In this document: piece after piece, positions 5,899 to 64,000 of the stretch
How the letters are laid out: each line of letters starts with the position of its first letter
Numbering within the stretch: position 1 is the first letter of the stretch
NCBI GenBank assembly: GCA_047972125.1
Contig: JBKEAK010000208.1
Location: 1,543-65,542, forward strand
From: Halodesulfovibrio sp.
GTDB taxonomy: Bacteria; Desulfobacterota; Desulfovibrionia; Desulfovibrionales; Desulfovibrionaceae
Direction of reading: 5' to 3'
Length of the DNA: 64,000 nt
Translations under genes and position numbers: made by a program
The notes under the pieces: model-generated
The model's database searches: none
What the model was told of the DNA's origin: nothing
What the model saw: only the letters and a program-made list of their open reading frames with translations

Positions 5899-5942
5899 AG
5901 AAAAAAAGAGATTGTTCCATTTTGGAACAATCTCTTTTTTTC
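5899..5942. terminator. Bidirectional rho-independent terminator
   Basis: agagattgttcc (5907-5918) pairs with ggaacaatctct (5924-5935), flanked by an A7 run and a T6 run. It lies just downstream of the 6000-8651 gene. Confidence 0.8.
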
Positions 5943-5999
5943 TTGCCATTGCCTGACACATGAGGCGCCCACGCACCAAAGAGCCAGAATTACAGCCGG

Positions 6000-8651
6000 T
6001 TATTTGGGCACTATGGGATGGTGCGCAGACTCATACACCGTCAGTTCGCGAGTATGGCAGATGCAGTTGTTGCCTCTGCCAAGAGGACCGGCAAGCTGCT
6101 GATACTGCAGGGGAATGATGTTGCTGCGCAGTTTGCCGAAGGCATTTTCCGCCGGATACAGGGCATGGGTGGACCCGTGGCAGGCCTGACACATGATGGC
6201 CCCCATGTCGTCCTGTCGCTCGCTGTACAGCTCGGCAGGATCACCCGATGTCCATTTATGCGCCGCAGAAGAGTCCGCCGCAGGTGTGGTGAAGAAGTCG
6301 TGGCATACGGTGCAGTCAGGCTCGCTGACCCAGGGAGAACGGGCCTGCACGTCTTCGTAGGAATCCGCAACACGGGGCACAAGGTGCGTCATGAGCTTGT
6401 CCACACCGCGCTTGCCCAGCTCCTTTTCCTTCTTCAGCAGGCCAAGGGCGTGGTCTTCCAGCGTGCCGTGGCAGTTCACACAGGTAAGCCCCTTGGAGGC
6501 GTGCACACCGCGCATGCCCTGCGTAAAACTCGACCGGGCTGCGGGATGGCAGCTCTTGCAGCTGCGGTCGTCTTCCTCGCCAAGATAGTTCGCATGCCAG
6601 CCATGCACAGCGGCGGAGAAGCCGATAAGCCCTTCCTGCCCTTCAGTTCCCAGCTTGGGAGAGCCGTGGCAGCTCTGGCAGAGCACGGGGTTGCCACGGG
6701 CGGCACGCGCCACAAGGTCGGTTCTGTTGATCTTGTCATGTGCGGCGAGAATGTTGTCTGCCGTCACATCAGACATGCCGGTGCGGTTGGCCACGCGCCA
6801 GCCACCATCGTGGCAGTTGCGGCAGCCCCATTCCGTGGAAACGGGAACGGCAACCTGTGTCTCGGCCAGCAGTTCGCCGGACGAATCACGCGCCTCGACA
6901 ATGAGCAGCGGATAGGGATTGACGGAACCGTCGTTGCCATAGGGCAAGGCAGGCAGGCCATGCACCACAAATGCCCTGTGGGCCTCATCAGGCGCAAACT
7001 GCCCTTCCGGCCCTGAACCCGGTTCACCGCCGGGAGCCATGCCCACATTCGGGGGAACTTCCTTGCCGAACAGCGCTGCGGCATGGTCCCAGAAGGTCAC
7101 ATGCTTGGCGGGCGTTTCAAACCCCTTTTCCATGCGGTAGGAAAGCACGACACCGTCCGTCAGAATTTCCGGCGTGTCATCCCGCCGCAGCAGCTGGGCA
7201 CGCACGGTCACACCGGGCGGTTGCATGGTGAAACGGTCATTATTATCTGAAATGGTTGTCATGCCCATGGTTGCCCACGCCACCAGCACATATTCCGCTT
7301 CATGCCTGTTGAATGCAGGAATGATGGTTGCCAGTGCCTGCGGTGAAACAGAGGTACCCTCGGGCTCGCGCTTCTGAATGATGTCGGCAATATAGGTGGC
7401 AAGCGCCACGCGCTCTATTTCAGTGCCCAAGAAAGGCGGCATGAAATTGCGCAGGCGTCCCTGACCGGAAAGCTGAGCCTCAAGGCCCGTGCGGGTCAGC
7501 GCAGCCGTTTTCGTCTCGGCAGAGAGCATGGGGCCGCCAATGCTGTGGCAGGCCAGACACTGCAGGCGATAGAGTTCCTCACCGGCCTCTACCATGTTCT
7601 GCGGCGTCACCTCGCGCACCTTGACCCACTTGGCGTGCTGCAGCGCGCCTTCCTTGCGGATGAGTTCAGTCTCGGCCACCTTCACGGAGTTGGACCACGT
7701 GTGCCCGTGGATGAGATAAGGTCTGCGTCCGGCTTCACGTATCCATTCAAAAGTACCCATATGGGCCAGTCCGGCAAGCACGAGCACCCCGACAAGGGCA
7801 GCCCGGCACACCTTGGTGCGCATGTAGGCAACCGTCAGGCCGCCGAGAATGATGGCAGCGGTAAGGGGGAAGAACACCCGCACCAGTTGCGGAGTCTGGG
7901 CCGACTTCTGCAGAACCATGGTGAACTGCGGCTCGGGCAGGGCCATCAGATACCACACCCCGGCAGGCAGCATGAGCAGGAAGGGATAGCCAACCCACTG
8001 CACGGCGTAGCGCACCATGCGCTCGCGGGTGTGTTCTTCCTTGATGCGTATGGCCGTTACCAATGCAAACAACCCTGCTCCCATGAGGCAGATGGAGGTG
8101 CGCAGCGCAAGCGAGGGCCAGAAGGTGGGGTTGAAGAACCCGTCCCAGAACCGCTGGGTCTGCAACCATTCGCCCGGAGTGAGCATGGTGGTGATAATGC
8201 CGTTGATGACATACAGCGACATGAAGGCAAAACCGAAATAGAACCAGCCGATAACCATGTGATCGCGACGTGACATGTGGTTGAAGCGGTAGTGATACAG
8301 CAGCAGAGCCACAATTTCACACAGGAAGAACACCCACTCAATTGCCCAGCCGAAGCCGAAGGCATGCACCAATGTGGATGTTGCCGCAGGCGAAAGCAGC
8401 CCGATGGTGAACCATATGCCCACCCCGGTCATGCCGCCCGCCACCATGGTCAGCAGCAGAAAGAACTTGGTGTGCGCCTTGACGTAGTCGAGAATGCGGG
8501 AATCATTTTCCCTCACCGCCTTGCGCTCCGTCAGCACGAGGAAAAGGCCGCCGCCCACCGCAAAATGCGCGATGAAGACGTGGAACACCGCCACGCAGGC
8601 GATGATGAAGCCACCGGAAAACTCGGGAATCCACCATACTGGATATTCCAT
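6000..8651 (-). CDS. Fusion protein: cytochrome-bd-subunit-I-like polytopic membrane domain, monohaem cytochrome c module and multihaem cytochrome c domain
   Basis: The start was chosen at MEYPVWW (ATG 8649-8651), 2 nt after the upstream stop. The N-terminal region (FHVFIAHFAVGGG, GWAIEWVFFLCE) is CydA-like. There are seven CXXCH motifs (CLACH, CRNCH, CQSCH, CKSCH, CVNCH, CTVCH, CQACH) plus a terminal CICH. Confidence 0.7.
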   Translation of the reverse strand: MEYPVWWIPEFSGGFIIACVAVFHVFIAHFAVGGGLFLVLTERKAVRENDSRILDYVKAHTKFFLLLTMVAGGMTGVGIWFTIGLLSPAATSTLVHAFGFGWAIEWVFFLCEIVALLLYHYRFNHMSRRDHMVIGWFYFGFAFMSLYVINGIITTMLTPGEWLQTQRFWDGFFNPTFWPSLALRTSICLMGAGLFALVTAIRIKEEHTRERMVRYAVQWVGYPFLLMLPAGVWYLMALPEPQFTMVLQKSAQTPQLVRVFFPLTAAIILGGLTVAYMRTKVCRAALVGVLVLAGLAHMGTFEWIREAGRRPYLIHGHTWSNSVKVAETELIRKEGALQHAKWVKVREVTPQNMVEAGEELYRLQCLACHSIGGPMLSAETKTAALTRTGLEAQLSGQGRLRNFMPPFLGTEIERVALATYIADIIQKREPEGTSVSPQALATIIPAFNRHEAEYVLVAWATMGMTTISDNNDRFTMQPPGVTVRAQLLRRDDTPEILTDGVVLSYRMEKGFETPAKHVTFWDHAAALFGKEVPPNVGMAPGGEPGSGPEGQFAPDEAHRAFVVHGLPALPYGNDGSVNPYPLLIVEARDSSGELLAETQVAVPVSTEWGCRNCHDGGWRVANRTGMSDVTADNILAAHDKINRTDLVARAARGNPVLCQSCHGSPKLGTEGQEGLIGFSAAVHGWHANYLGEEDDRSCKSCHPAARSSFTQGMRGVHASKGLTCVNCHGTLEDHALGLLKKEKELGKRGVDKLMTHLVPRVADSYEDVQARSPWVSEPDCTVCHDFFTTPAADSSAAHKWTSGDPAELYSERQDDMGAIMCQACHGSTHALYPAENAFGKLRSNIIPLQYQQLAGPLGRGNNCICHTRELTVYESAHHPIVPK

Positions 8652-8653
8652 GA

Positions 8654-9745
8654 CTAGCCCTCCCTGCCGGGGCGGAACGCCAGCCGGATCATGTAGAAGA
8701 TGCACCAGAGACCGCCGAGAAGCGTCACAAAGAAGAGAATCATCGGTGAATAATCTGCCATGACAGGCAGGTCCTGTACCTTGAAATAGGGCTCAAGATA
8801 GGCAGCCCGGACAAGCGCACGAACCAGCGACATGGCCAGCACGGTGGCGACAAGGGCCACCGCCGTTGCCTTGACCCGGTTGCGCACTGCGTAGTGCAGC
8901 ACTATGGCAACGCACACCAGCGCCACGGCCAGCGCACCGGTATGGAACTCGGATGAACCGAGGAAAAGGGACCTTATGCGCACCGGCATGGCACCGAGAA
9001 ACGCACCACCCACCAGCAACTGCATGGCAGTACAGATGGTGAACCACATCATGCCGAAGCGGATATGCGGCATGGCCTCCTGCTTGTCCATGGTGCCCTT
9101 GGTGAGGCGGTGTTCAAACAGCAGGGCCAGCGTGAGCCCGCCCACAGCCACGGCCGCCAGCATGAAGTGCAGGTAGCGCGGCACCAGCGCGGGGTCTGCC
9201 GTATTGAGCAGCAGGCCGCCCATGCCGTGATCGGCCGCACCGCCGTCGCCGAAGTAGGCCAGCCATGCCTCAGGCTGCAGCATCATGGTCATGTTGTTGG
9301 TGAAGATGAATCCCACAAACAGCAGAACCGCACAGACCACAGCCAGAATCAACCGGCTGCTTTTCCACGCCTCGTACTTGTACCGGAAGGTATAAAGCCC
9401 CGAATAGGCGATGATGGCGCACAGCACCACAGAAAGCCAATAGGCCCCCATGAGCACCGAGCTGGTATAGAAAAATTGTCCGTAAAGCATCTGGGCGAAC
9501 AACAGCGGGGCAACGCCAAAGTTCACGGTAAGTGCGAAAAGCGTGGGCAGTGAGTGGGAAACCTCCCGCACTGCGGCATCGCGGGGAAGGGATACGGACC
9601 GGACGAGACAGAGAATGCCCCCGCCCACCACGGCGTTCATCAGCAGAATATGTGCGGCAAAGGTGACAATCAGCAGAACCTCCAGCCAGCCCCAAGCCAC
9701 GGGTATTGCATCCGGCGCAGGTATCAGATTTGCGGCAACCATCAA
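8654..9745 (-). CDS. Polytopic membrane protein paralogous to the N-terminal domain of the downstream gene (CydA-like, no haem c motif)
   Basis: About 9 hydrophobic helices. FAAHILLMNAVVGGG parallels FHVFIAHFAVGGG of the partner. The gene appears translationally coupled to the next one. Confidence 0.6.
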   Translation of the reverse strand: MMVAANLIPAPDAIPVAWGWLEVLLIVTFAAHILLMNAVVGGGILCLVRSVSLPRDAAVREVSHSLPTLFALTVNFGVAPLLFAQMLYGQFFYTSSVLMGAYWLSVVLCAIIAYSGLYTFRYKYEAWKSSRLILAVVCAVLLFVGFIFTNNMTMMLQPEAWLAYFGDGGAADHGMGGLLLNTADPALVPRYLHFMLAAVAVGGLTLALLFEHRLTKGTMDKQEAMPHIRFGMMWFTICTAMQLLVGGAFLGAMPVRIRSLFLGSSEFHTGALAVALVCVAIVLHYAVRNRVKATAVALVATVLAMSLVRALVRAAYLEPYFKVQDLPVMADYSPMILFFVTLLGGLWCIFYMIRLAFRPGREG

Positions 9746-11396: not shown

Positions 11397-12731
<1,335 letters not shown>

Positions 12732-12755
12732 GCCGGACTGGTACGACAGAATGCA

Positions 12756-12786
12756 AAAGGCCGGAGCATATGCTCCGGCCTTTTTG
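12756..12786 (+). terminator. Rho-independent terminator of eno
   Basis: ggccggagca/tgctccggcc stem (12759-12780) followed by TTTTT. Confidence 0.85.
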
Positions 12787-12870
12787 CGTTCGTGCCTGCT
12801 GCGGCAAGACGGTTGTGCGAATTCCCTAAATATCCTTACTCAAGCAGCAGATCTCCCGAAAGAACTTTTA

Positions 12871-13050
12871 TTACTTCTCTTTTACCAGCCAAACATAGGC
12901 GAGCATTCCAGCACCGATCGCAACAAGGGGATAGCTCACCCATCCCGGAACTGCTATCGAATGCCAGTAAAGATACTCTTCGCCTAAATTGCTGACACCA
13001 AGCAAAAAGACGAACAATCCTAAAAAACTATTCAGTATTTTTCTTTTCAT
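12871..13050 (-). CDS. 59-aa two-TM protein, paralogue 1 of a four-member family (putative immunity-type protein)
   Basis: Not in the ORF track because it is under 60 aa. Hand translation: MKRKILNSFLGLFVFLLGVSNLGEEYLYWHSIAVPGWVSYPLVAIGAGMLAYVWLVKEK. It shares the layout and the W-V-x-Y...G...ML...VWL...KEK tail with 13159-13347 and 15538-15735. Confidence 0.5.
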   Translation of the reverse strand: MKRKILNSFLGLFVFLLGVSNLGEEYLYWHSIAVPGWVSYPLVAIGAGMLAYVWLVKEK

Positions 13051-13122
13051 TTGACTTCAACATATGGAGATTTCGTGCGGAATTCAGGCGATATAAGTAA
13101 TTTGATGCTGAAATGTGTAATT

Positions 13123-13202
13123 AAAAGAGAGACTACAAAAAGCAGCCTCTCTTCACTCCTATTTCTCTTTGGGCGGACTCAGCCACACAACCAGCAGCAT
13201 AA
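13123..13202. repeat. Copy A of an ~80-nt direct repeat (3' end of a small TM gene plus the downstream hairpin)
   Basis: aaaagagagactacaaaaagcagcctctcttca[c/t]tcctatttctctttg... recurs at 15502-15581 with few mismatches. It contains the hairpin aagagag/ctctctt. Confidence 0.8.
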
Positions 13203-13347
13203 CGATACCTATGATGATGAGCGCATACGGAACCCAAGGGTCAACTAACGGAAGCTCCTTATAGTAAACAACGTCATTGCCGCTTTTTACCGCACCGAGC
13301 ACAACTATTAACACACCCCAACTACTGTATATTATCTTGCGCTTCAT
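13159..13347 (-). CDS. 62-aa two-TM protein, paralogue 2 (putative immunity-type protein)
   Basis: MKRKIIYSSWGVLIVVLGAVKSGNDVVYYKELPLVDPWVPYALIIIGIVMLLVVWLSPPKEK. An alternative GTG start at 13416 would overlap the upstream stop (GTGA). Confidence 0.55.
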   Translation of the reverse strand: MKRKIIYSSWGVLIVVLGAVKSGNDVVYYKELPLVDPWVPYALIIIGIVMLLVVWLSPPKEK

Positions 13348-13412
13348 CGTGTTATGTTTAGCCAACCATATTTCCAATGAGACACTCAACTCAGCCCCTG
13401 CCGGAAAGCCTA

Positions 13413-14003
13413 TCACAACTCAAAGCCCGGGCCGCGCATGCATTCCCGTGCAGCTTGAAAGTTGCCGAGCACATAATACTCTTCACCTGCGATCTGCACC
13501 CGGGTATACAGATAAAACCGCTTCCGGATTGCCGTCTGCACAGCCTGCACATCCTCCCGCCCAACGCAGAGCACCCGCCGTGGCCGGACTGAGGCCACGC
13601 AGAAGCGGGTATCATCCCAGTACATCCCGCACCGGAAACTATTCACATAGGCCTGCAGGCTGACAAGGGAAACACCAAGGGAAAGAAACAGAAGCAAAAC
13701 AACCATAAAATCGGGAATGTAGAACACAACCCCGAGTGGATAAAAGCAATAGAAGGCGTAGACCACAACAAACAAGGTCGCCGAGGTAATACATATACGT
13801 TTGGGGACAAGGCGCACTGCACCCGCATCAACAAGGACGCCCTGTTTTGCAAAACGCCTGACAAGGAGCCACCGCCGCAGGTCGAACCGGAACATGACAC
13901 AACACACGTCAACCAGCAGAATCGGGATAAAGAAAAGAATGGGGATAAGGGACAGCAGCCCAGCACAGAGCACAAGCGTGTTATTTCCGAAAGCCAACTC
14001 CAT
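13413..14003 (-). CDS. Hypothetical membrane protein (3-4 TM plus a ~70-aa soluble C-terminal domain)
   Basis: ATG 14003 is preceded by AAGGAG, 9 nt after the upstream stop. Hydrophobic helices are present; no family was recognised. Confidence 0.55.
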   Translation of the reverse strand: MELAFGNNTLVLCAGLLSLIPILFFIPILLVDVCCVMFRFDLRRWLLVRRFAKQGVLVDAGAVRLVPKRICITSATLFVVVYAFYCFYPLGVVFYIPDFMVVLLLFLSLGVSLVSLQAYVNSFRCGMYWDDTRFCVASVRPRRVLCVGREDVQAVQTAIRKRFYLYTRVQIAGEEYYVLGNFQAARECMRGPGFEL

Positions 14004-14012
14004 GCCCGCTCC

Positions 14013-14537
14013 TTATGCCTTGTCCGGAGCTCGGTGCTTCCAGAGAAGGAAGCCGAACCCTGCGTTCAGTGCGACCCAATAGGCCACAAGGTATGACACC
14101 GGAAGCACGACATGGCCACTCAGCAGCAACACGAGGCCCGCAAACAATGCCAAGCTGATGGCCTTATCTTTAGCGGATACGGTTCCCACGAAAGATGCAT
14201 ACCCGAACCTGTATGAAGCCAGCAGCAGTGCGGCACACACCAACAGCACCGCCCCGCAAAGGATAAGGTTCTCTGCCTCAGTGAAGTCCGCCCTGTAATC
14301 CCATTTGGATAGAGCAAAATAGACTGCCCAGCTCCCGCCTACCGCTATAGCCGCAGAGATCACCTTCGCTGCCCTTCTGCTTCCTGTCACCGCAAAAGGA
14401 ACTGCCAGCACAATCGGCCCCATCATCCCTATAAGAGCATACATGAAGACGTTCCACACTTCCTGATGCCACACAAGCACCATAGCCCGCTGAGTTATAT
14501 CAAGAGAAAACAGGGAGAGCATTATTCGCCAAATCAT
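14013..14537 (-). CDS. Hypothetical polytopic membrane protein
   Basis: About 5 hydrophobic helices. The ORF is open to 14621; the start was placed at MIWRIML (14537) but remains uncertain. Confidence 0.5.
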   Translation of the reverse strand: MIWRIMLSLFSLDITQRAMVLVWHQEVWNVFMYALIGMMGPIVLAVPFAVTGSRRAAKVISAAIAVGGSWAVYFALSKWDYRADFTEAENLILCGAVLLVCAALLLASYRFGYASFVGTVSAKDKAISLALFAGLVLLLSGHVVLPVSYLVAYWVALNAGFGFLLWKHRAPDKA

Positions 14538-14706
14538 ATGCCGCCCACAGATATTACAGGTTGTATCAGGGCAGCCACCCGGGCTGCCCTGTTTGCGTAC
14601 TTCTACCGCCCTCTGTTCCACTTTCTGCTTTCTATCTCTGCAGCTGCTGGCGATGGTACGGGACGATCATCAATCAAGGCCACGGTAAATGCCCTCATTC
14701 CATCAA

Positions 14707-14883
14707 CTACCGCTTCCTGCGCATAAACCAACTGTATGCGAGAATACCCACACCTGCGATAATCAGAAACGGGGCAACCCACTCATCAATGGCGACACCC
14801 CTATTCGTCAGCTCACCGGAATAGACACCCCATCCCCCGATCATAACCATTGAGAGTCCGATAAATAATTCAAACGGCTTCAT
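14707..14883 (-). CDS. 58-aa two-TM protein, paralogue 3 (putative immunity-type protein for the orphan toxin tail)
   Basis: MKPFELFIGLSMVMIGGWGVYSGELTNRGVAIDEWVAPFLIIAGVGILAYSWFMRRKR. It has the same topology and the W-V-x-(Y/F) motif. The ORF is open to 14904. Confidence 0.5.
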   Translation of the reverse strand: MKPFELFIGLSMVMIGGWGVYSGELTNRGVAIDEWVAPFLIIAGVGILAYSWFMRRKR

Positions 14884-15080
14884 CCTATTCGTCCTCATCA
14901 CCAACCGTCGTTACCTTTTCTGCCTAACGTCATAACAAGCAGGTATACCCCTACTGCTATAAATACATAAGAACCCAGACTCTAAGGATATGTTCATATA
15001 ATATGGCTGCTCGGCCAGGCTCTGTCTCACTCCCTCCACAACCAATAATATCCCAACAACTCTCAATTCGAACTGCGCTT

Positions 15081-15440
15081 TCACTTAGACTGCCCTCGCC
15101 GTATACCCTTTGTTACAGTTCTCACGCCCTCTCCAACTTTTGCCCCGATACACTCGCTTGGAGAAGAAGGGGGTAACTCCGGGGCAATGGCCCCTGCGGT
15201 AACATCACGAATTATCTCGTATGATGCGGGGCTGGTGAGCACCTTATTTACCGCATCTATACCTTTGTTACGCACAGCTTGTCCTGCAGCAGAAGCCGCC
15301 TTTCCCACAGCTTGAGCAGCCACCTTCCCTGCCTGAGTTGCCATCTTGGCGGCTTGCGGTGCTTGTTTCAATGCGGCCGCGCCAAGCTCCGGCAATGCGG
15401 CAATCTCAACAAGCTCGAAAATCTCACCATGCTCGACCAC
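15081..15440 (-). CDS. Orphan polymorphic-toxin C-terminal module (no Rhs shell), related to the tail of 15719-16738
   Basis: Residues LVEIAALPELGAAALKQAPQAAKMATQAGKVAAQAV...RNKGIDAVNKV match the Rhs tail. The last ~55 aa are unrelated to it. Confidence 0.55.
   Translation of the reverse strand: MVEHGEIFELVEIAALPELGAAALKQAPQAAKMATQAGKVAAQAVGKAASAAGQAVRNKGIDAVNKVLTSPASYEIIRDVTAGAIAPELPPSSPSECIGAKVGEGVRTVTKGIRRGQSK
15262..15410. repeat. Recombination tract shared with 15911-16027 (orphan copy, carrying a 33-nt internal duplication)
   Basis: Near-identical DNA, e.g. ggcggcttgcggtgcttgtttcaatgc[g/a]gccgcgccaagctccggcaatgcggcaatctcaac. The extra segment encodes GKAASAAGQAV. Confidence 0.8.
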
Positions 15441-15501
15441 GGCACTATGATATCGCCCACGGATTCCAGGCGGCTGGACTTCTCCGCTGAACTACATAAT
15501 C

Positions 15502-15581
15502 AAAAGAGAGACTACAAAAAGCAGCCTCTCTTCATTCCTATTTCTCTTTGCTCGGGCTCAGCCACACAATCAGCAGCATGA
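15502..15581. repeat. Copy B of the ~80-nt direct repeat
   Basis: See 13123-13202. The two copies are 2379 nt apart in the same orientation. Confidence 0.8.
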
Positions 15582-15735
15582 CAACACCTATCACACCGCA
15601 AGCGTATGGAACCCAGCTGGGAAGCAATTTCCTATTAAAAATCACCACGTCTTCCCCCCAATGAAAGATGGCAATCCAGAGAGGAAGAAGGGCATACAGG
15701 CTATTTTTGAACTTTTGTTTACTGCTTCCTTTCAC
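15538..15735 (-). CDS. 65-aa two-TM protein, paralogue 4 (putative cognate immunity protein of the Rhs tail)
   Basis: MKGSSKQKFKNSLYALLPLWIAIFHWGEDVVIFNRKLLPSWVPYACGVIGVVMLLIVWLSPSKEK. Its start overlaps the last 17 nt of the toxin gene. Confidence 0.6.
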   Translation of the reverse strand: MKGSSKQKFKNSLYALLPLWIAIFHWGEDVVIFNRKLLPSWVPYACGVIGVVMLLIVWLSPSKEK

Positions 15736-16738
15736 GCTTCATGCCCTTTGTAAAATGGTCAAACACATCGCGACCACTGCTCCCAATCTGTTCCCAAATA
15801 TTTGTAGCCGGAATCTCGGGATATGCAGCCCCCAAGCCCACATCTTTACCATGCTCGATCGCTGCAGCCACTGCCGCCGGATTCCCCATAACCTTATTTG
15901 CCACATCAATGCCTTTGTTGCGTACAGCTTGAGCAGCAGCCTTCCCTGCCTGAGTTGCCACCTTTGCGGCTTGCGGTGCTTGTTTCAATGCAGCCGCGCC
16001 AAGCTCCGGCAATGCGGCAATCTCAACCATGGCACTGTTGATATTGGCCACGGTATCCAGAGGCTTATCCACTGCAGTCTGTGCTTTGGTACCGGATTTA
16101 TTAAACGTATCCGCTGCGCTGGCTGCCACCTTGGTACCGCCATAGGCAAGCACAGTGGCACCGGCCATGGCACCGGCAAAGGGAAGAAGAAATGCAAACA
16201 GTCCCAGCGGATCATTCGCATTCACCGGATCATCAACACAATAATCCCACAAATCGTGATCACCGCCAGTATCGCCCAGCGGGTCCCGGGCGGTGAAACG
16301 GCCCACAGCGGGATCGTAATCGCGGTAGCCAAAACGGACGAAGCCTGTGTAGCGGTCAGGCAGCCCCCCGGCAAAGCCAATGGGCATATAAAACCACTCG
16401 TTTGAGTCACTTAGCACATTGCCAAAGCTATCATACACGATTTCCTTTATCAATTCCCCGCTCTGCGACCACACCGCCCTGAGCGAGCCCACCTGATCAT
16501 AACCGAGCAGATAAGTCGCCATCTCGCTGCCGGCACTCTGCATGCTGACCTCGCCGAGGTTCTCCATCACTGTCACGGCTTCCGGAAGCCTCTCTGCTCC
16601 ATACTGAAAATGATATGAAAGCCCACGGATGTGATCATGATAGGTGGCAAGCCGCGTGGAAAACAAAAGGCCACACCCTACAGGAAAGCAGGCGCAGTCA
16701 TTTCTGCACCTTCCCCGCACGGCATGGCCGGTATCCAC
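15719..16738 (-). CDS. 5'-truncated Rhs-family protein: last YD/RHS repeats, RHS-associated core ending in DPLGL, and a 159-aa variable C-terminal tail
   Basis: YLLGYDQVGSLRAVW, YDSFGN, GFAGGLPDRYTGFVRFGYRDYDPAVGRFTARDP and DDPVNANDPLGL (DPLGL at 16199-16213). RHS-like sequence starts almost at the ORF start, only 23 nt after the stop of the neighbouring gene. This may be a remnant or pseudogene. Confidence 0.75.
   Translation of the reverse strand: MDTGHAVRGRCRNDCACFPVGCGLLFSTRLATYHDHIRGLSYHFQYGAERLPEAVTVMENLGEVSMQSAGSEMATYLLGYDQVGSLRAVWSQSGELIKEIVYDSFGNVLSDSNEWFYMPIGFAGGLPDRYTGFVRFGYRDYDPAVGRFTARDPLGDTGGDHDLWDYCVDDPVNANDPLGLFAFLLPFAGAMAGATVLAYGGTKVAASAADTFNKSGTKAQTAVDKPLDTVANINSAMVEIAALPELGAAALKQAPQAAKVATQAGKAAAQAVRNKGIDVANKVMGNPAAVAAAIEHGKDVGLGAAYPEIPATNIWEQIGSSGRDVFDHFTKGMKRERKQ
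15911..16027. repeat. Recombination tract shared with 15262-15410 (Rhs-tail copy)
   Basis: See 15262-15410. Confidence 0.8.
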
Positions 16739-16761
16739 AAGATTTTCAGATCAAAGACGGA

Positions 16762-17640
16762 TCAGACCCGCACCTCCACAGCCTCGCTGGGCGCATAGCC
16801 AAAATGCCGTTTGAACTCGCGGCTGAATTGGGAGGAGCTTTCATAGCCGACCATGTGGGCAGCAACCCCCGCCTGCAGGCCCTGCGCCACCAGCAGCTGC
16901 CGCGCCTTTTCCAGCCGGATGCGCTTGAGATACTGCACGGGCGACAGCGATGTGGCCGCCTTGAAATGGTCATGAAATGAACGCACGCTCATATTGGCCG
17001 TCTCCGCCAGCGCGGTTACGTCCAGCTGGGTGGAGTAGCTGTCGTGCATCACCCGTAGCGCGGAAACTACTCGGGCATAAGCGCTCTCGCCACGGGCCGC
17101 CGAGGCGAGAATATGCCCCTGCCGCCCCGCAAGCACGCGATAATAGATTTCACGCACGGCCTGCCTGCCGAGAATGAGCGCCTCTTCCCTGCTTTCCAGA
17201 CTTTGCAGAAGGCGCAGCATGGCATTCTGCAGAGGTTCCGACATGGTGTCGAGAAACGCGCCTGCGTGCCTGTCCGTGCCGTCCGCCTCCGCATCGGCCC
17301 CACTGCCCAGCGTATCCAGAATCTCCCGCACCACCAGATAATCGATGCCGACCGTCACGGAAAGAAACGGTTCTTCCGGCGTGGCAGCGGTTTCACACTC
17401 AAAGGGACCCACCGCAGGCACCACCAGATAGTGGCCCGTATCATAGGTGAATGACCTGTCGGAAAGGTGCGCTGTCTTACGTCCCTGCACCACAAGGCAC
17501 AGGCAGGCATTGTATACCAGCGGGTTCTTGGGCACGGGTGCTCCCGCACGGTACAACGTGACATCGTCCAGAAACGTGGGAGTCGCACCGTCGCTCTGAG
17601 CGAGCCGGACAAAAGCACTGCGCAGTGCCGGATCTGTCAT
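16762..17640 (-). CDS. AraC-family transcriptional regulator, YqhC-like (cupin/AraC_N-type sensor domain plus a double HTH)
   Basis: C-terminal AraC HTH (SVRSFHDHFKAATSLSPVQYLKRIRLEKARQLL...VGYESSSQFSREFKRHFGYAP). It is divergent from a yqhD-like gene, as in E. coli yqhC-yqhD. Confidence 0.8.
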   Translation of the reverse strand: MTDPALRSAFVRLAQSDGATPTFLDDVTLYRAGAPVPKNPLVYNACLCLVVQGRKTAHLSDRSFTYDTGHYLVVPAVGPFECETAATPEEPFLSVTVGIDYLVVREILDTLGSGADAEADGTDRHAGAFLDTMSEPLQNAMLRLLQSLESREEALILGRQAVREIYYRVLAGRQGHILASAARGESAYARVVSALRVMHDSYSTQLDVTALAETANMSVRSFHDHFKAATSLSPVQYLKRIRLEKARQLLVAQGLQAGVAAHMVGYESSSQFSREFKRHFGYAPSEAVEVRV

Positions 17641-45545: not shown

Positions 45546-46013
45546 TGCGCCGGTACATGGAAACTACGCGACTTCACCGCACATCAGGCCAGTTACAGGC
45601 AAACGGCAGACATGCATCAGGAGGATATCAGGCGGACACCGGATGCACCCCGCCTCTTCCATCATGCCTGCCCCCGGTCACTTCGCTCGCATACGGAGCC
45701 ATTCTCACAATTTTTTATTCAGCTAGTATGCGGTCGTATCAAATCTCATTCTCTCCCATAAAAGTCAGGAATTATCGTGGGTTAATTTCCACTAAATAAT
45801 GTTTTTTTGCCCCTCATTAATGGCGTTTGAGTACTCACATAACCACTTAACCATCTGAAAACAGAGTACTCGTAGCATTTTTATGAGTGAGCACACAAAA
45901 AAGCACCCGATCTTTTCAAAATTCGCAAAATGGTCTAAAGCAATCGACGCCAACAGATATCTTTCGCATTTCGTACAGTTAGGTTTAACACCAAGTTTCG
46001 AGGAAGGTGTACC

Positions 46014-46781
46014 TTGCCAAAGAGATACTTTCCCATCGCCGTGCTGACCGGTATTCTGGCAGCCGTCGCCCTTTTCGGCTACATGACTCCGACCAAGTCG
46101 GAAACCACCCCCGTCCGCATTCTCATGGATAATGCTGGCGGCAAGGTGATTTTCAATCATGTGGCCCACACCAGGGATTACGGCGCAGCCTGTGAAACCT
46201 GTCACCATGAGACCGTAGCCGGAGACACGGAACCTCTCTCCTGCGGTCAGTGCCATGGGGCCAACGTCACCGATGCCTGGGTGAAGGAACATCAGACATC
46301 CTTTACCAAGGACCTCCAGTGCGCGACCTGCCACCATGTCGAGTTCGCCAAGGACCACGACTGGGGCCACAAAATGCATGAGGATATCGCCTCCTGCACG
46401 GATTGCCACCACGCCGACACGAACATCGAGCCGGAACCCACCAACTGCGCAGACTGCCATCAGGCCGAAGCAGATGGAAAGATGCCCGCCCTGCGTGATG
46501 CCGTGCACGTGAAGTGTCAGTCCTGCCACGCGGAAATGTTCGAGGCGCAACTCAAGGGTTGCAGCAACTGCCACGGCGAAGTGAACCAGAAGGAAGCACT
46601 CAAGGCCGGCCAGATGGACAAGAAGTTCACCAAGTGTACTTCCTGTCATACCGACAAGGCCGTGACCGAAGTCATCCCCAGCCGGATGACCGCCCTTCAC
46701 GCCAGCTGCATGGGTTGCCACGAAAAGCAGGATGCCGGCCCTTACAAGAAGGGCGAGTGTAACCAGTGTCATTTCCGTTAG
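46014..46781 (+). CDS. dhcA: Membrane-anchored decahaem cytochrome c associated with the Rnf operon
   Basis: TTG start preceded by AGGAAGG, an N-terminal anchor helix, and ten CXXCH motifs (CETCH, CGQCH, CATCH, CTDCH, CADCH, CQSCH, CSNCH, CTSCH, CMGCH, CNQCH). It sits directly upstream of rnfC, as in Desulfovibrio vulgaris. Confidence 0.85.
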   Translation: MPKRYFPIAVLTGILAAVALFGYMTPTKSETTPVRILMDNAGGKVIFNHVAHTRDYGAACETCHHETVAGDTEPLSCGQCHGANVTDAWVKEHQTSFTKDLQCATCHHVEFAKDHDWGHKMHEDIASCTDCHHADTNIEPEPTNCADCHQAEADGKMPALRDAVHVKCQSCHAEMFEAQLKGCSNCHGEVNQKEALKAGQMDKKFTKCTSCHTDKAVTEVIPSRMTALHASCMGCHEKQDAGPYKKGECNQCHFR

Positions 46782-46790
46782 GAGAGCAAT

Positions 46791-47972
46791 ATGAGTAACG
46801 CTGTTTTCTCTCTGACCTACGGAGACATGGGTAGCTTTCAGGAAGGTCCTGTTCCCGCTGAACTGCGCATTCCTCTTGCCGGTCATGAACTCAAGACCGT
46901 GAAGAAGAAGGCAGAAGTGGTTCCGGGTACGCTCGTGGCCGACCACAAGAACGCCAAGACAGGTAACATGCACGCCGGCATCGCCGGGGTGGTGACCGAC
47001 ATCACCGCAGACAGCATAGTCATTGCCGCGCAGGAACCCGCCGAACCCGCATCCGTAGCAGCCGTAGACGTATCCGCCCTTACCGGCGATGCGCTTGCCA
47101 CCGCACTGAAGGAACTGGGCGTGGATGTACGCCCTCTGGTCAAGAAGTGCGACACCCTGATCATCAACGGCCTGAACCCCGAGCCCGGCATAACCTTTGC
47201 CGAAACCTTGCTGGGGCAGCACAAGGGAACCATCGAAGCCGGTCTTGCCGTGCTGAGAAAGCTCTCTCCCGCCAGCAGAATGATGCTGGCCTGTGCAGAC
47301 GGTTCAGCAGCCAACCTTTCGGGCCTCACAAATGTTGCCGTGAAGCCCGTATATCCCAACAGCCTCGATGAGCTGCTCATCGCCAAGGCCACCGGCAGCG
47401 AAAAGAGCACCGGTGTGCGGGTGTTGCCCCTGCATACCCTGTTCAACCTCGGACAGGTTGCCCAGACCGGCATGCCCCTCACCAAAACCGTGGTGAGCGT
47501 ACAGGGTGTGAACTACATGGTCACCATCGGCACCCCCGTAAGCGAGCTGCTGCAGCACGCCGGCCACACCATAGCCGACGGCGACATGATCATCGTCGGC
47601 GGCCCCATGCGCGGCATAGCCGTAGCCGACCTCATGCGCGGCGTGGGCAAGGATACGCAGGGTCTCTTCCTCATCAAGAAGGGCTCCTTCGCTCCCGTAA
47701 CCAACAAGCAGTGCATAAGCTGCGGCGAATGCGTGCTGCACTGTCCCTCGCGGATAATGCCCAACCTCATTACCCGCTATGTGGAATTCCGTCAGTTCGA
47801 ACAGTGCACCGATCAGGGCATTGACGTCTGCATGGAATGCGGTCTGTGCGCATACTACTGCCCGGCCCGCCGTCCCATGCTGCAGCTGATCAGGCTCGGC
47901 AAACATCAGATAGCCCTCAAGGAAGCTCAGGTCAGCGCCTGCTCCCTGCAGGGCCCAGAGGGGGCTGCATAA
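46791..47972 (+). CDS. rnfC: Rnf complex subunit C, short/divergent form
   Basis: N-terminal barrel domain, an SLBB-like segment (IIVGGPMRG) and two C-terminal 4Fe-4S motifs (CISCGECVLHCP, CMECGLCAYYCP). The GGAGFP and ECEPY motifs are absent. Confidence 0.85.
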   Translation: MSNAVFSLTYGDMGSFQEGPVPAELRIPLAGHELKTVKKKAEVVPGTLVADHKNAKTGNMHAGIAGVVTDITADSIVIAAQEPAEPASVAAVDVSALTGDALATALKELGVDVRPLVKKCDTLIINGLNPEPGITFAETLLGQHKGTIEAGLAVLRKLSPASRMMLACADGSAANLSGLTNVAVKPVYPNSLDELLIAKATGSEKSTGVRVLPLHTLFNLGQVAQTGMPLTKTVVSVQGVNYMVTIGTPVSELLQHAGHTIADGDMIIVGGPMRGIAVADLMRGVGKDTQGLFLIKKGSFAPVTNKQCISCGECVLHCPSRIMPNLITRYVEFRQFEQCTDQGIDVCMECGLCAYYCPARRPMLQLIRLGKHQIALKEAQVSACSLQGPEGAA

Positions 47973-48931
47973 TGTCCAACGAAGCATTGCCAACCGCGCC
48001 CATTCTGGCTGTCGGTGCCGCTCCCCATTTCCATTGCGGCACGAGCATTCAGGGCATGATGCGCAATATCCTCATCGCCCTTGCTCCCGCCATTGTCGGT
48101 GCCCTGTACTGGTATGGCATGGAAGCAGCCCGCGTAATGGCGCTTGCCGTTTCCACGGCAGTTGTAGTTGAAGTTCTCGCAACCAAGGCCATGCACCGCG
48201 AAGTGATGGTAGACGACCTGCACGCCGTTGTAACCGGCCTGCTTTTCGCCTTCACGCTGCCCGCCGGTGCACCCTGGTGGCTGGTTATTACCGGCACCGC
48301 CGTTACCATGCTGATGGGCAAGATGCTCTTCGGCGAACTGGGCGGTTCTCCGGTTGTCGGTCCCGCAGTGGGCTGGGCCTTCTGCCGCGTTTCCTGGCCG
48401 CTGTTCGTTGACCCGAACGCGACCATGCTGAACACCGAAATGGTGAACCCGCTCACCCAGCTGAAGTACTTCGGTGCTGCACAGGTGAGCAACTTCAGCA
48501 TTCCCGCCCTGCTCTCCGGCGATCAGCTCGGCGCGCTGGGTGCAATGCAGGTGGGTGCCCTGATCCTCGGCGGCATCTATCTCATCATCCGCGGCACCAT
48601 CCGCTGGCAGATTCCTGCGGGCTTCATCATCGGTGTGCTGGGTCTGGGCGGCCTTTACTACGCCATGGACCCCACCCTGTATGCGAACCCCGTGTTCCAC
48701 CTGCTGACCGGCTCCACCATGCTGGCAGCCTTCTTCCTGATGACGGATTCCTCCTCCTCGCCCAACGGCAACGTATCCCGTCTGGTATACGGCATTGTCG
48801 GCGGCGTGCTGGTGGTTCTCATCCGGACCTACGGCAAGTATCCCGACGGTGTCATGTTTGCGGTTCTTCTCGCCAACATGGTCAGCCCGCTGGTGGACCT
48901 CATCAAGCCCAAACCGTTCGGAGCGAGGTAA
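47972..48931 (+). CDS. rnfD: Rnf complex subunit D
   Basis: TAATG overlap with rnfC. It is a polytopic NqrB/RnfD-type protein, with the FMN-attachment region near MTDSSSSP. Confidence 0.9.
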   Translation: MSNEALPTAPILAVGAAPHFHCGTSIQGMMRNILIALAPAIVGALYWYGMEAARVMALAVSTAVVVEVLATKAMHREVMVDDLHAVVTGLLFAFTLPAGAPWWLVITGTAVTMLMGKMLFGELGGSPVVGPAVGWAFCRVSWPLFVDPNATMLNTEMVNPLTQLKYFGAAQVSNFSIPALLSGDQLGALGAMQVGALILGGIYLIIRGTIRWQIPAGFIIGVLGLGGLYYAMDPTLYANPVFHLLTGSTMLAAFFLMTDSSSSPNGNVSRLVYGIVGGVLVVLIRTYGKYPDGVMFAVLLANMVSPLVDLIKPKPFGAR

Positions 48932-48934
48932 GCC

Positions 48935-49513
48935 ATGCGTGAAATAATCAAGATGATCGTTGTGCTTTCCGCAATCTGCGGTCTCTCCGGCTTCTGTCTG
49001 TCCTACCTCAAGCAGCTGACCGCCCCCGCCATTGAGAACCAGGTTCTCACCTTTGTGCAGGGTCCGGCCATCAAGCAGGTTCTGACCGACACCGACAACG
49101 ACCCCATTGCGGACCGCAAGAAGTTCACGAACCCCGCCACCGGCAAGGAAATCAACGTATTTCCCGCCATCAAGGGCGGCAAGCTCGTTGCCATCGCCCT
49201 TGAAGAATTCGGCGCAGGCTTCGGCGGTGACATTGGCGTTATCGTTGGTTTTAACGTGGAGAACGACACCCTTGCCGGTATCGGCGTTACGACCATGAAG
49301 GAAACTCCCGGCCTTGGCACCGCAGTAGCGGAGACCCGATTCACCAAGCAATTCAAGAAGCTGCCCATGAACGTGGACCTCAAGTCCAAGGGTGGACAGA
49401 TTGACGCACTTTCCGGTGCGACCATTTCTTCCACCGGCGTTGTGACTGCAGTTCAGAACGCTGCAAAGGTGTATCAGGCCATCAAGTCCGAAGCCACGGG
49501 CACCTGGAAATAG
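48935..49513 (+). CDS. rnfG: Rnf complex subunit G (FMN-binding)
   Basis: N-terminal anchor and the FMN-binding motif DALSGATISS. Confidence 0.9.
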   Translation: MREIIKMIVVLSAICGLSGFCLSYLKQLTAPAIENQVLTFVQGPAIKQVLTDTDNDPIADRKKFTNPATGKEINVFPAIKGGKLVAIALEEFGAGFGGDIGVIVGFNVENDTLAGIGVTTMKETPGLGTAVAETRFTKQFKKLPMNVDLKSKGGQIDALSGATISSTGVVTAVQNAAKVYQAIKSEATGTWK

Positions 49514-49542
49514 CCGGTCGTGAACCGATAAAGGAGAATACA

Positions 49543-50217
49543 ATGGCCAGCATGTGGAAAGAGTTTTCCAAGGGCCTGTGGGCGGAAATTCCGCCGTTCC
49601 GGCTTATGCTCGGACTGTGCCCCACGCTCGCCGTTACGAAATCCGCCAACAACGGCCTCGGGATGGGTCTTGCCGTTATCTTCGTTCTTGCCCTGTCCAA
49701 CGGCGTTATCTCGCTGATTCGTAACATTATCCCCAAAAAGGTGCGTATCGCCTGTTACATTGCCATCGCAGCTTCGCTCGTTGTTGCGGTGGAACTGCTC
49801 ATGCAGGCGTACACCTACCCCCTTTACCAGCAATTGGGCATCTTCGTGCCCCTTATCGTTGTTAACTGCATCATCCTTGGCCGCGCGGAAGCCTTTGCAG
49901 GCAAAAACCCCGTGCACCTGTCCGTTGCGGACGGCCTTGGCATGGGCATTGGCTTCACCATGTCGCTGACCTTCCTCGGCGCTCTCCGCGAAATACTCGG
50001 ATACGGCACCCTGTTCGGTCATCACCTGTTCGGCCCCGGCTTCCATCCTGTTCACTTCATGGTAGAAGCCCCCGGCGCGTTCGTATCGCTCGGTCTTATC
50101 CTCGGCGGCATGAACCTCATGAGCATCCGCAAAGCCATGCGCCGCGGTGAAAAGCCCGCTGAAAACCCCATGCCCGGCTGCGAATCCTGTCGCGGTTGTG
50201 CAATGGGCAGGGATTAG
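49543..50217 (+). CDS. rnfE: Rnf complex subunit E
   Basis: NqrD/RnfE-type polytopic protein (LGLCPTLAVT, LIVVNCIILGRAEAF). Confidence 0.9.
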   Translation: MASMWKEFSKGLWAEIPPFRLMLGLCPTLAVTKSANNGLGMGLAVIFVLALSNGVISLIRNIIPKKVRIACYIAIAASLVVAVELLMQAYTYPLYQQLGIFVPLIVVNCIILGRAEAFAGKNPVHLSVADGLGMGIGFTMSLTFLGALREILGYGTLFGHHLFGPGFHPVHFMVEAPGAFVSLGLILGGMNLMSIRKAMRRGEKPAENPMPGCESCRGCAMGRD

Positions 50218-50230
50218 GAGGTACTAAGCT

Positions 50231-50806
50231 ATGATGGAATACTTCCTGCTCCTCATTTCTGCGGTCTTCGTTAACAACGTTGTTCTTGCCCAGTATCTTG
50301 GTCAGTGCCCCTACCTTGGTTGTTCCAAGGAAAAGGGCGTGTCCATCGGCATGGGCGCGGCGGTTATCTTCGTAATGATCATCGCCACCCCCATTACCTG
50401 GCTCATTCAGTTCAACGTGCTTGTACCCCTGGGTCTGGACTACCTGCAGACGATCATGTTCATTCTGGTCATCGCAGCACTGGTTCAGCTGGTGGAAATG
50501 TTCCTGAAGAAGGCTGTGCCCCCGCTGTACAGCTCGCTCGGCATCTTCCTGCCGCTCATCACGACCAACTGCGCCGTGCTCGGCGTGGCCATCGTGGTAC
50601 AGCGTGAAGGTTTCGACCTTGGCACGTCCACCTACTATGCGTTTGCCACCGGCCTCGGCTTCATGCTGGCGCTGATTCTGCTCGCAGCCATCCGTGAACG
50701 ACTGGAGATCTCCCGTCTGCCCCTCGCCATGCGCGGCGTTCCTGCCGCACTGGTACTGGCAGGCATCATGTCCATGTCGTTCATGGCGTTCTCGGGCATG
50801 ATCTAG
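50231..50806 (+). CDS. rnfA: Rnf complex subunit A
   Basis: NqrE/RnfA-type protein (FVNNVVLAQYLGQCP, LITTNCAVLGVA). Confidence 0.9.
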   Translation: MMEYFLLLISAVFVNNVVLAQYLGQCPYLGCSKEKGVSIGMGAAVIFVMIIATPITWLIQFNVLVPLGLDYLQTIMFILVIAALVQLVEMFLKKAVPPLYSSLGIFLPLITTNCAVLGVAIVVQREGFDLGTSTYYAFATGLGFMLALILLAAIRERLEISRLPLAMRGVPAALVLAGIMSMSFMAFSGMI

Positions 50807-50875
50807 GCATACGACGTCTAGGGCAAAGAGGTAATTGACCCCCTGCACGGGGGCATAACCACAAGGATAAGCATT

Positions 50876-51757: not shown

Positions 51758-51770
51758 AGGAGCGAAGAGC

Positions 51771-61950: not shown

Positions 61951-64000
<2,050 letters not shown>

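Follow-up and report, generated by a model that had tools for sequence, protein, structure and literature searches.

A mini-Rhs polymorphic-toxin locus of the Desulfovibrio subterraneus clade, probably disarmed and kept as an immunity repertoire

In a 64-kb stretch of contig JBKEAK010000208.1 from Halodesulfovibrio sp. (hereafter the window), the interval between eno (11415-12731, + strand) and an AraC-type gene (16762-17640, - strand) holds an array of genes that is likely to be a resident mini-Rhs polymorphic-toxin locus of the D. subterraneus clade, disarmed and now serving as an immunity repertoire. Indeed, its Rhs gene (the head gene) carries a deletion and a recombinant tail end, the immunity-type gene immC is frameshifted and the tail CT-D is reduced to 20 codons, and six candidate immunity or accessory genes are intact. 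Coordinates are window positions unless another contig is named. For comparison, L001 denotes a JGI contig, L002 the D. subterraneus genome CP087381, L029 D. mangrovi, and L019 to L028 another D. subterraneus assembly and several metagenomes, with L021 an ENA metagenome contig; P-numbers are given to proteins of the Rhs family, P0002 and P0005 being intact relatives and P0001 the window remnant taken as a 282-aa open reading frame (ORF).

Results

The ORF at 15719-16738 (- strand, 339 aa) passes the TIGR03696 Rhs_assc_core model with 62.6 bits (cut-off 32.5) over residues 102-180, a test set beforehand, which bears out the truncated Rhs core with a toxin tail reported in a preliminary description of this DNA. 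The same ORF reaches 46.1 bits with the PF25023 TEN_YD-shell model (cut-off 50), the PHROGs gave one weak Rhs-core match (phrog_10385, E = 9e-6), and PADLOC returned no match for the island proteins. The remnant of the mini-Rhs body (16199..16660, -), recognized with TIGR03696, comprises the last YD hairpins and the RHS core or autoprotease plug, ends in PVNANDPLGL and is 98.7% identical to residues 194-349 of P0005. Two DPxGL motifs, which are known to define the C-terminal autoprotease and the cleavage site before the variable tail (PMC8636562), stand 19 aa apart (...RDPLGD-(19 aa)-PVNANDPLGL|FAFLL...), so that a PxxxxDPxGL sequence would demarcate the tail; D358 and G361 of the autoprotease motif are invariant in 59 homologs.

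Base-level alignments with L001 and L002 revealed a deletion junction at 16659..16662 (-), where 692 bp are missing at a 3-bp microhomology: window 17686 to 16660 aligns with L001 8905-9932, window 16661 to 15874 aligns with L001 10624-11411, and L002 behaves likewise. The deletion took with it the promoter region and start codon of rhs as well as its first 208 codons. Because the junction lies at 16660, the first ~26 codons of the 339-aa ORF (16661-16738, with a GTG at 16738), which are not Rhs sequence, represent a fortuitous read-through of the AraC 3' flank. Searching for exact copies of the AraC protein and the 339-aa ORF returned nothing, as gene callers choose other start codons. The identical junction is carried by L021, an independent metagenome contig, and the deletion allele is therefore real and circulating in nature. 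Moreover, the window and L021 share the deletion with different tail ends and arrays, meaning that recombination went on once the locus was disarmed, or else that the deletion passed from one haplotype to another. In D. mangrovi (L029:8134-9723), the head gene is split into ORFs of 277 and 240 aa by an in-frame TAA at a codon that specifies Glu in relatives (...VWSQSG*LIKEIVYDSFGN...), and immunity-type genes as well as one orphan module are kept 3' of the broken gene; unless due to a sequencing error, this stop would show that the locus was disarmed a second time, independently and by other means.

Alternatively, the truncated gene might still be expressed, through read-through or from an internal start (giving the 282-aa P0001), and form with the neighboring gene immB an intracellular module of the toxin-antitoxin type. 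The frame is open from 16738 or 16567 to 15722, the autoprotease motifs are intact, the deletion allele persists in two array haplotypes and is thus not rapidly lost, and an orphan Rhs reported in Salmonella (PMC7043789) provides a precedent. Nevertheless, we consider such a module quite improbable, since the deletion took away the native promoter and start codon and the rhs remnant is separated from the AraC gene by a terminator-like hairpin (16690-16711, -), since neutrality together with selection on linked immunity genes explains the persistence of the allele equally well, and since the in-frame stop of D. mangrovi points to a general trend of loss.

In the disarmed locus that we favor, the tail attached to the remnant is itself informative. 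This predicted toxin tail, CT-B (159 aa, 15722..16198, -; stop codon 15719-15721), was delimited by hydropathy and tail-family alignment and starts with a hydrophobic small-xxx-small helix (16142-16198), continues through helices rich in Ala and closes with a variable end (~15722-15873); its residues 1-19 have a mean Kyte-Doolittle value of 1.7, and Ala plus Gly account for 33% of the whole tail. A three-way comparison with the main gene and the first orphan (orphan-1) of L001, based on 155 informative sites, placed a recombination crossover at 15874..15937 (-). Above ~15938, the window gene tracks the L001 main gene (45 main versus 5 orphan sites), and below 15900 it tracks orphan-1 at all 103 informative sites. 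The window tail is thus a chimera of a main-gene body and an orphan-type end, and the position of the crossover, in a conserved tract before the variable last ~50 codons, reads as the signature of homologous recombination between main and orphan copies.

The orphan toxin tail proposed earlier was likewise recovered: a 104-nt tract of the main tail (15924-16027) recurs with 95% identity at 15307-15410, within a 119-aa ORF (CT-C, 15081..15440, -) that is homologous to the main tail from ~15410 and has neither the core nor the hydrophobic helix; L001 carries this module as well, at 12878-13237. Together with immC, CT-C (15081-15440 plus 14911-15084) fits the definition of an orphan rhs-CT/immunity pair, that is, a 5'-truncated tail with its own immunity gene, here frameshifted. 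From the soluble tail CT-D, a 3' remnant of 20 codons and the stop persists (14603..14665, -) with 80% identity to residues 486-505 of P0005, and the window from 14666 to 13107 aligns with L002 11455-13015 at 97%. Note that JGI names an identical 119-aa CT-C fragment (P0122) 'pyruvate/2-oxoglutarate dehydrogenase complex E2 component', a label almost certainly transferred in error because of an Ala/Pro-rich low-complexity tract.

Close homologs of the Rhs ORF occur in D. subterraneus, D. mangrovi and metagenomes, and the eno-proximal locus was found in ~14 related contigs (D. subterraneus clade and D. mangrovi), usually with an intact head gene and with the shared order hflX - Fe-ADH - AraC - rhs array - eno - coaX. 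These close relatives were recovered through exact-protein look-ups; a scan of species representatives with the AraC protein returned only relatives with <=59% identity and missed D. subterraneus itself. At the same position, L001, L002, L019, L020, L023 and L024 carry intact head genes of 502-523 aa, which is the full length of rhs in this system, and a classical gene of ~1400 aa is the wrong expectation. The end carried by the head gene differs among strains: CT-A in L001 (where CT-B, CT-C and CT-D are orphans), CT-D in L002 and CT-E in L019. The starting points of orphans 1-3 in L001 fall within the core (...GDTGGDHDL..., ...WDYCVDDPV...). A common set of modules, differently shuffled, makes up at least five array haplotypes, and at least six tail ends (CT-A to CT-F) occur on one conserved body, each followed by a distinct small gene, an arrangement that would correspond to polymorphic tails with their immunity genes. 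The module orders of the sister strains tie each gene for a protein with two transmembrane (TM) segments to one variable tail end. Altogether, the intact head genes of relatives, the 5' deletion and the orphan modules matched to sister strains support the decayed polymorphic-toxin/immunity array suggested by the preliminary description.

Since the locus is shared by the D. subterraneus clade, D. mangrovi and one further Desulfovibrio metagenome-assembled genome (MAG), it is a long-resident hypervariable site next to eno and not a recent insertion, while the lack of rhs or eno beside the AraC homologue in five more distant relatives indicates that it is accessory at the genus level. The island had been described as accessory, which is correct with respect to these five relatives but does not hold in the sense of a newly inserted element, as it is resident in the clade. 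In the distant Desulfovibrio MAG L007 (4564-7281), a 630-aa Rhs protein of the same class lies between eno/folD and the Fe-ADH/AraC pair; it has a ~200-aa N-terminal extension and a soluble tail, and behind it come a 166-aa protein that is hydrophobic in an N-terminal segment and a stand-alone core fragment. This arrangement indicates that the locus is old and also bears non-membrane tails. In Pseudodesulfovibrio thermohalotolerans (L006:8182-16105), a short rhs array adjoins a phage-type integrase and an AraC_N/Fe-ADH pair, and in D. mangrovi (L029) the AraC/Fe-ADH pair is absent and rhs stands directly behind hflX. The pair and the rhs array may move or get lost independently.

With regard to the small membrane genes, immB (65 aa, two TM segments, 15538..15735, -) is intact, overlaps the tail stop by 17 nt and is the candidate cognate immunity gene of CT-B; the overlapping two-TM protein had been correctly noted from its ORF and two hydrophobic segments, and an identical 65-aa sequence is encoded in L001 (12583-12780). 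The next gene, immC (57-aa ORF, 14911..15084, -), is a pseudogene: DNA alignment with two intact L001 copies showed that it derives from a 61-aa two-TM gene and that a 2-bp deletion at ~14976/14977 has shifted its frame, with the loss of TM2, and its tblastn match is split across two frames. It was also overlooked in the preliminary list, whose eight minus-strand ORFs all exist as placed and to which immC adds a ninth. An intact two-TM gene, immX (14707..14904, -), identified by ORF and hydropathy, encodes 65 aa from its first start, the 58 aa previously given being counted from Met8; in L019, immX (6100-6297) is placed behind its own 55-aa orphan tail end, CT-F (5922-6089).

The larger immD (169-174 aa, 14013..14534, -), intact and with four or five hydrophobic TM-like segments, is a candidate immunity gene for CT-D, as it stands behind CT-D in every haplotype (in L002 behind the head gene that bears CT-D, in L001 behind the orphan CT-D); no family above cut-off was found for it in Pfam, NCBIfam, PADLOC or PHROGs. 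It is always followed by a gene for a 196-aa protein (13413..14003, -) with about four TM segments and a soluble C-terminus, for which Pfam and NCBIfam gave nothing above cut-off and whose only match is a single 90% cluster of 13 members, so that the family is confined to this clade. This gene occurs on 24 contigs, always inside the array, and is a candidate for a second immunity or accessory protein. Two further two-TM genes of the immunity type follow. The first (62 aa, 13159..13347, -) is intact here, frameshifted or truncated in L002 and 46% identical to immB, and a DNA repeat (13107-13236 and 15486-15615, 82% identical) links the two small genes. The second (59 aa, 12871..13050, -) is intact and lies near the head gene in L019-type strains (L019 5279-5461). 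The retention of several immunity-type genes, as formerly stated, therefore applies to the six intact candidates but not to immC.

The small proteins of the window form one divergent paralogous family (12-46% identity) with a common topology predicted by hydropathy (a pair of hydrophobic segments between basic termini), a W-[VA]-x-[YF] signature preceding TM2 and 95-100% conservation across strains. They belong to no curated family of Pfam or NCBIfam, and their PHROGs matches are at chance level only. One could argue from this, from their shortness and from the one broken copy that there is no toxin/immunity system at all, and that these small membrane proteins and the Ala-rich ORFs have unrelated functions or are spurious in AT-rich DNA. 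We find this hardly credible, given the paralogous family with its conserved topology and W-x-x-Y/W signature, the near identity across strains, the significant Rhs core match and the position of such small genes directly behind Rhs tails in unrelated genomes.

For the toxin/immunity locus, this last point emerges from the wider databases. Among 110 Rhs homologs, 56 bear the same tail type, which starts right after DPxGL with a small-residue-rich hydrophobic helix (consensus LFPPLLxFxxGxAxAxGLGxGGxYxAAKxAD); its middle is helical and rich in Ala and Gly and is succeeded by a '...DFxEGxxxPxPPxxSxxGxxG' segment, and its end is basic. A homology search with the single tail sequence retrieved only 4 close relatives, and a profile was needed to delimit the family. 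Built from 24 tails and searched against 1.84 billion representative proteins, it gave 111 matches (P0001 with 111.6 bits), all <=547 aa, in which the tail is always C-terminal or a stand-alone fragment. With 111 matches and none on long proteins, the tail family is rare and exclusive to the short-Rhs scaffold. Five unrelated loci supply seven more modules (L003, L006 twice, L016 twice, L017 and L018) in which an overlapping or close two-TM gene stands behind a membrane-type tail, and L006 also repeats the arrangement of an orphan end with its immunity gene. The earlier remark that neither tails nor immunity candidates match a recognized family is accurate for curated families, but both do belong to definable ones.

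Rhs proteins are currently pictured as a closed cocoon of ~1000 aa or more around the toxin, with an N-terminal adaptor onto a secretion system. The Rhs homologs from our search are overwhelmingly 220-590 aa long; in 64 of them, with 33-43% mutual identity, the part from the first YD repeat to the core end measures 268-323 aa (median 279), well short of a closed shell, and is preceded by N-terminal extensions of 26-197 aa. None of the 64 contains a PAAR string and only one has a hydrophobic N-terminus (essentially no signal peptide), and the N-termini of P0002 and P0005 gave no Pfam match that would point to a trafficking domain. The intact P0005 and P0002 score 62.9 and 68.8 bits with PF25023, above the cut-off of 50, over profile positions 623-866 of 909 only. 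An AlphaFold2 (AF2) model of P0002, built with 59 family members, has a predicted local distance difference test (pLDDT) score > 90 at residues 45-335, with the N-terminal 45 residues predicted to be disordered, and superimposes on the bacterial teneurin-like protein 9ifo_A with 2.3 A root-mean-square deviation (rmsd) over 312 columns (TMt 0.20, ~20% of the chain). The plan of the head gene is thus a disordered N-terminus, ~280 aa of YD sheet with the autoprotease plug and a ~160-aa tail after ...DPLGL, the YD part amounting to roughly a fifth to a quarter of a shell.

Such a short scaffold could also mean that these genes are everywhere decayed C-terminal pieces of long rhs genes and that the whole family is genomic debris. 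No secretion domain is recognizable, only the last part of the YD shell is present according to both the PF25023 positions and the TMt value, and other bacteria commonly hold orphan fragments of long rhs genes (PMC3150448). However, random truncation of long genes would scatter the lengths, whereas the YD-to-core boundary is fixed in 64 proteins that share only 33-43% identity; in addition, the frames are open with N-terminal extensions of their own, the tail family is found on this scaffold only and never on long Rhs proteins, and a matching small gene stands behind each gene. On this evidence, the debris explanation is very unlikely.

In distant genomes, the short rhs genes stand alone among housekeeping genes; one (L017) lies among phage head genes and one (L006) adjoins the integrase mentioned above. 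In L017:1195-5822, the gene of P0112 (513 aa, among the strongest members of the tail family) and its two-TM gene stand directly behind genes for a phage head-tail connector (PF12236), a Bbp19-like protein (PF25181) and an acidic protein of 206 aa, and some members of the short-Rhs family may be phage-borne. The N-termini of P0006, P0013, P0025, P0026, P0048 and P0063 contain one to four copies of a 'STE[DE]F[YL]RE[LV]F(A)K'-like motif. Motifs of the STE[DE]F type occur in many short-Rhs N-termini (a too-strict regular expression gave 3 matches), are absent from the D. subterraneus-type proteins and could be an export or loading signal.

As for the island as a whole, every candidate gene between eno and the AraC-type gene is on the minus strand according to the ORF list. 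The GC content of 12792-16660 is 51.5%, compared with 58.0 +/- 1.5% in 522 equally long windows elsewhere (z = -4.5), which makes it the lowest-GC 4-kb stretch of the window and agrees with its initial description as AT-richer than the flanks; the small genes are the most AT-rich (42-46% GC, versus 60-61% for eno, AraC and Fe-ADH). The true limits run from ~12792/12808 to 16660, since flank homology resumes at 12791-12807 on the eno side and the flank 3' of the AraC-type gene (16661..16761, -), outside the island, is 93% identical to L001 and L002 up to 16660. On the eno side, a perfect 15+15-nt palindrome (AAAAGGCCGGAGCAT/ATGCTCCGGCCTTTT; 12755..12784, no strand assigned) with the appearance of a terminator lies between eno and the island, marks the conserved flank, is kept in relatives and is probably a bidirectional terminator. 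Neither a tRNA nor any Rfam family was detected, indicating that classical island borders are absent, and the island ends are indeed marked by no integrase or tRNA. A prophage or integrative-element origin of the window island was considered and ruled out on these grounds and because synteny is kept across three species. The absence of a full-length rhs, PAAR, VgrG or secretion gene also proved right, as tblastn found no Rhs sequence in the window besides the island, and the 20 largest other ORFs of the window include no type VI secretion system (T6SS), VgrG or PAAR gene but only flagellar FlhA, FlhB and FlhF.

Elsewhere in the window, a 901-aa ORF (6000-8705, -) combines an N-terminal part resembling cytochrome bd subunit I (PF01654) with an MtrC/MtrF-like multihaem C-terminal part (PF22113, PF14522, PF14537). 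This unusual domain combination is kept as an 883-aa gene in L001, L002, L019 and L029. Four large ORFs of 476-737 aa (50117-52330, 61984-63744, 47927-49543 and 45792-47222, all -) have no Pfam match at E <= 1e-5; some of them, overlapping opposite-strand ORFs, may be shadow ORFs of a GC-rich genome.

Discussion

We propose that the tail of the mini-Rhs protein would insert into the cytoplasmic membrane of the target and dissipate the membrane potential, by analogy with known toxins, and that the ~60-aa two-TM protein encoded behind each tail variant would neutralize it inside the membrane, the variable end determining specificity. We infer this membrane-inserting, depolarizing toxin and its specific in-membrane immunity factors because no enzymatic signature was recognized, the helix is of the small-xxx-small type, the variable end is tiny, the partners are nearly entirely membrane-embedded, and an analogue exists in Tse5-CT/Tsi5 of Pseudomonas aeruginosa. 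The Tse5-CT toxin (PA2684) comprises 149 aa with TM and amphipathic helices and depolarizes cells, and Tsi5, the partner that confers immunity, contains two TM segments (PMC9637101). Both systems share a Rhs tail of ~150-160 aa with predicted TM and amphipathic helices, the lack of an enzymatic signature and a two-TM partner (PMC9637101, PMC10684867), and the window toxin probably acts on the membrane in the same manner. In contrast to Tse5, whose complete shell of ~1100 aa has a PAAR-like N-terminus and is delivered by VgrG/T6SS, the present proteins have a quarter-shell, no PAAR and no nearby T6SS genes; homology to Tse5-CT is probably absent, the presence of the Tse5-CT segment in the searched set of Protein Data Bank (PDB) chains being unconfirmed.

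The small-residue zipper helix further recalls the non-enzymatic, membrane-depolarizing toxins EsxX and TspA/TsaI of the Staphylococcus aureus type VII secretion system (T7SS) (PMC12744356, PMC9484751) and CdzC/D of Caulobacter (PMC5380434), which also come with membrane immunity proteins and with tandem paralogous immunity genes evolving by recombination. Unlike in our case, they rely on other delivery domains (LXG/T7SS, type I secretion), and they show no homology; the hosts here are Gram-negative sulfate reducers.

The hydrophobic helix could instead be a translocation device and the tail neither a pore nor an ionophore; the toxic activity would then reside in the Ala-rich middle or the variable ~50 aa and be directed at a cytoplasmic or membrane-associated target. 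For a T6SS DNase effector, translocation is reported to depend on a glycine-zipper motif (PMC10240207), and a conserved helix and middle with only the end polymorphic is the pattern of a delivery part joined to a specificity part. We nevertheless see this as unlikely, since fifty residues are very small for an enzyme, no enzymatic family matches, and the cognate proteins of 59-65 aa are nearly all membrane-embedded, suggesting neutralization in or at the membrane.

Several results weigh against the membrane-toxin locus favored here and against its present role as a set of shields. The AF2 model of the tail is all-helical with six helices but of low confidence (pLDDT 64; predicted template-modelling score, pTM, 0.30). 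A phmmer search of the tail against all PDB chain sequences gave only a chance-level RNase H2 match (E = 0.2), and no family was found for it in Pfam, NCBIfam, PADLOC or PHROG. A quarter-shell cannot enclose a 160-aa tail as classical Rhs cocoons do, and no secretion genes were found near any locus examined (within 4-10 kb in the distant genomes). The place of the 196-aa protein is not explained by our proposal, the stop codon of D. mangrovi could be a sequencing error, and a promoter and terminator scan was not above shuffled controls, which concerns the transcription of the remaining immunity genes.

In its dynamics, the array is a textbook case, in a new host group, of effector displacement, orphan modules and recombination between main and orphan copies. 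Orphan rhs modules and their recombination with the main gene are established in E. coli and Salmonella (PMC3150448, PMC3967940), and sequential effector displacement leaving immunity arrays is described for Vibrio cholerae (PMC5361080). As in those systems, 5'-truncated tail fragments with their own immunity genes stand 3' of the head gene, a recombination tract is shared (here 104 nt, 95%), the end fused to the head gene varies among strains, and immunity genes lacking a cognate toxin are in some cases retained. On acquisition of a new end, older tail-end and immunity modules would be pushed downstream, persist as orphans and recombine with the head gene via the conserved tail tract. The differences are that the head gene has ~510 aa here versus ~1400 aa, that the exchanged unit is made of the last ~50 tail codons and a ~60-codon membrane gene, and that the window head gene is itself 5'-truncated, so that the array contains no functional delivery gene.

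Compared with classical Rhs, TcC and teneurin proteins (P. laumondii Rhs1, PMC8636562; 9ifo, PMC13018210), the YD repeats, the core plug and the two DPxGL motifs are shared, as is, by prediction, the cleavage site directly before a polymorphic tail with an immunity gene downstream; over ~100 residues, the core and the teneurin-like protein 9ifo share ~58% identity. In contrast, the mini-Rhs body is limited to ~280 aa of YD sheet and plug and has no N-terminal plug, PAAR or trafficking domain, or signal peptide. The paper on the bacterial teneurin-like protein, our best structural match, covers full-size shells only (PMC13018210), and the literature searched, limited in extent, held no account of such short Rhs proteins or of their tail and immunity proteins. 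There is a slightly less than even chance, in our view, that the short Rhs proteins constitute a distinct functional class with a delivery logic of their own, outside the PAAR/VgrG-T6SS path. In such a class, the quarter YD shell with its autoprotease plug would hold the membrane-active helical tail intramolecularly, replacing the closed cocoon, and export would bypass the PAAR/VgrG-T6SS path, perhaps signalled by the disordered N-terminus. Its tail family would be exclusive to it, its two-TM immunity proteins of ~60 aa would form a family of their own, and natural populations would repeatedly lose the weapon and keep the shields.

Conclusions

The window locus is best described as a dead weapon with live shields, an ordinary end state of polymorphic-toxin loci that is unusually well documented here, with at least five haplotypes in one species-level clade, a deletion allele common to two of them and a nonsense allele in a second species. 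The window strain could no longer attack but should stay protected from strains with CT-B, CT-D and CT-F; since immA and imm61 are absent from the window according to tblastn, it is predicted to be sensitive to strains with CT-A and CT-E. Beyond this locus, the mini-Rhs architecture is conserved across many Desulfovibrionaceae and related lineages, is highly polymorphic and has an exclusive tail/immunity pair. If functional, it would bear on how a partial shell handles and delivers a hydrophobic toxin and on how strictly anaerobic sulfate reducers fight, and isolates are at hand (D. subterraneus, with genomes CP087381 and GCA_013340285.1, and D. mangrovi). If our interpretation is true, the ~50-aa specificity end and the ~60-aa immunity protein would be among the smallest toxin/immunity recognition units known, and such a small pair would be attractive for studying specificity inside the membrane.

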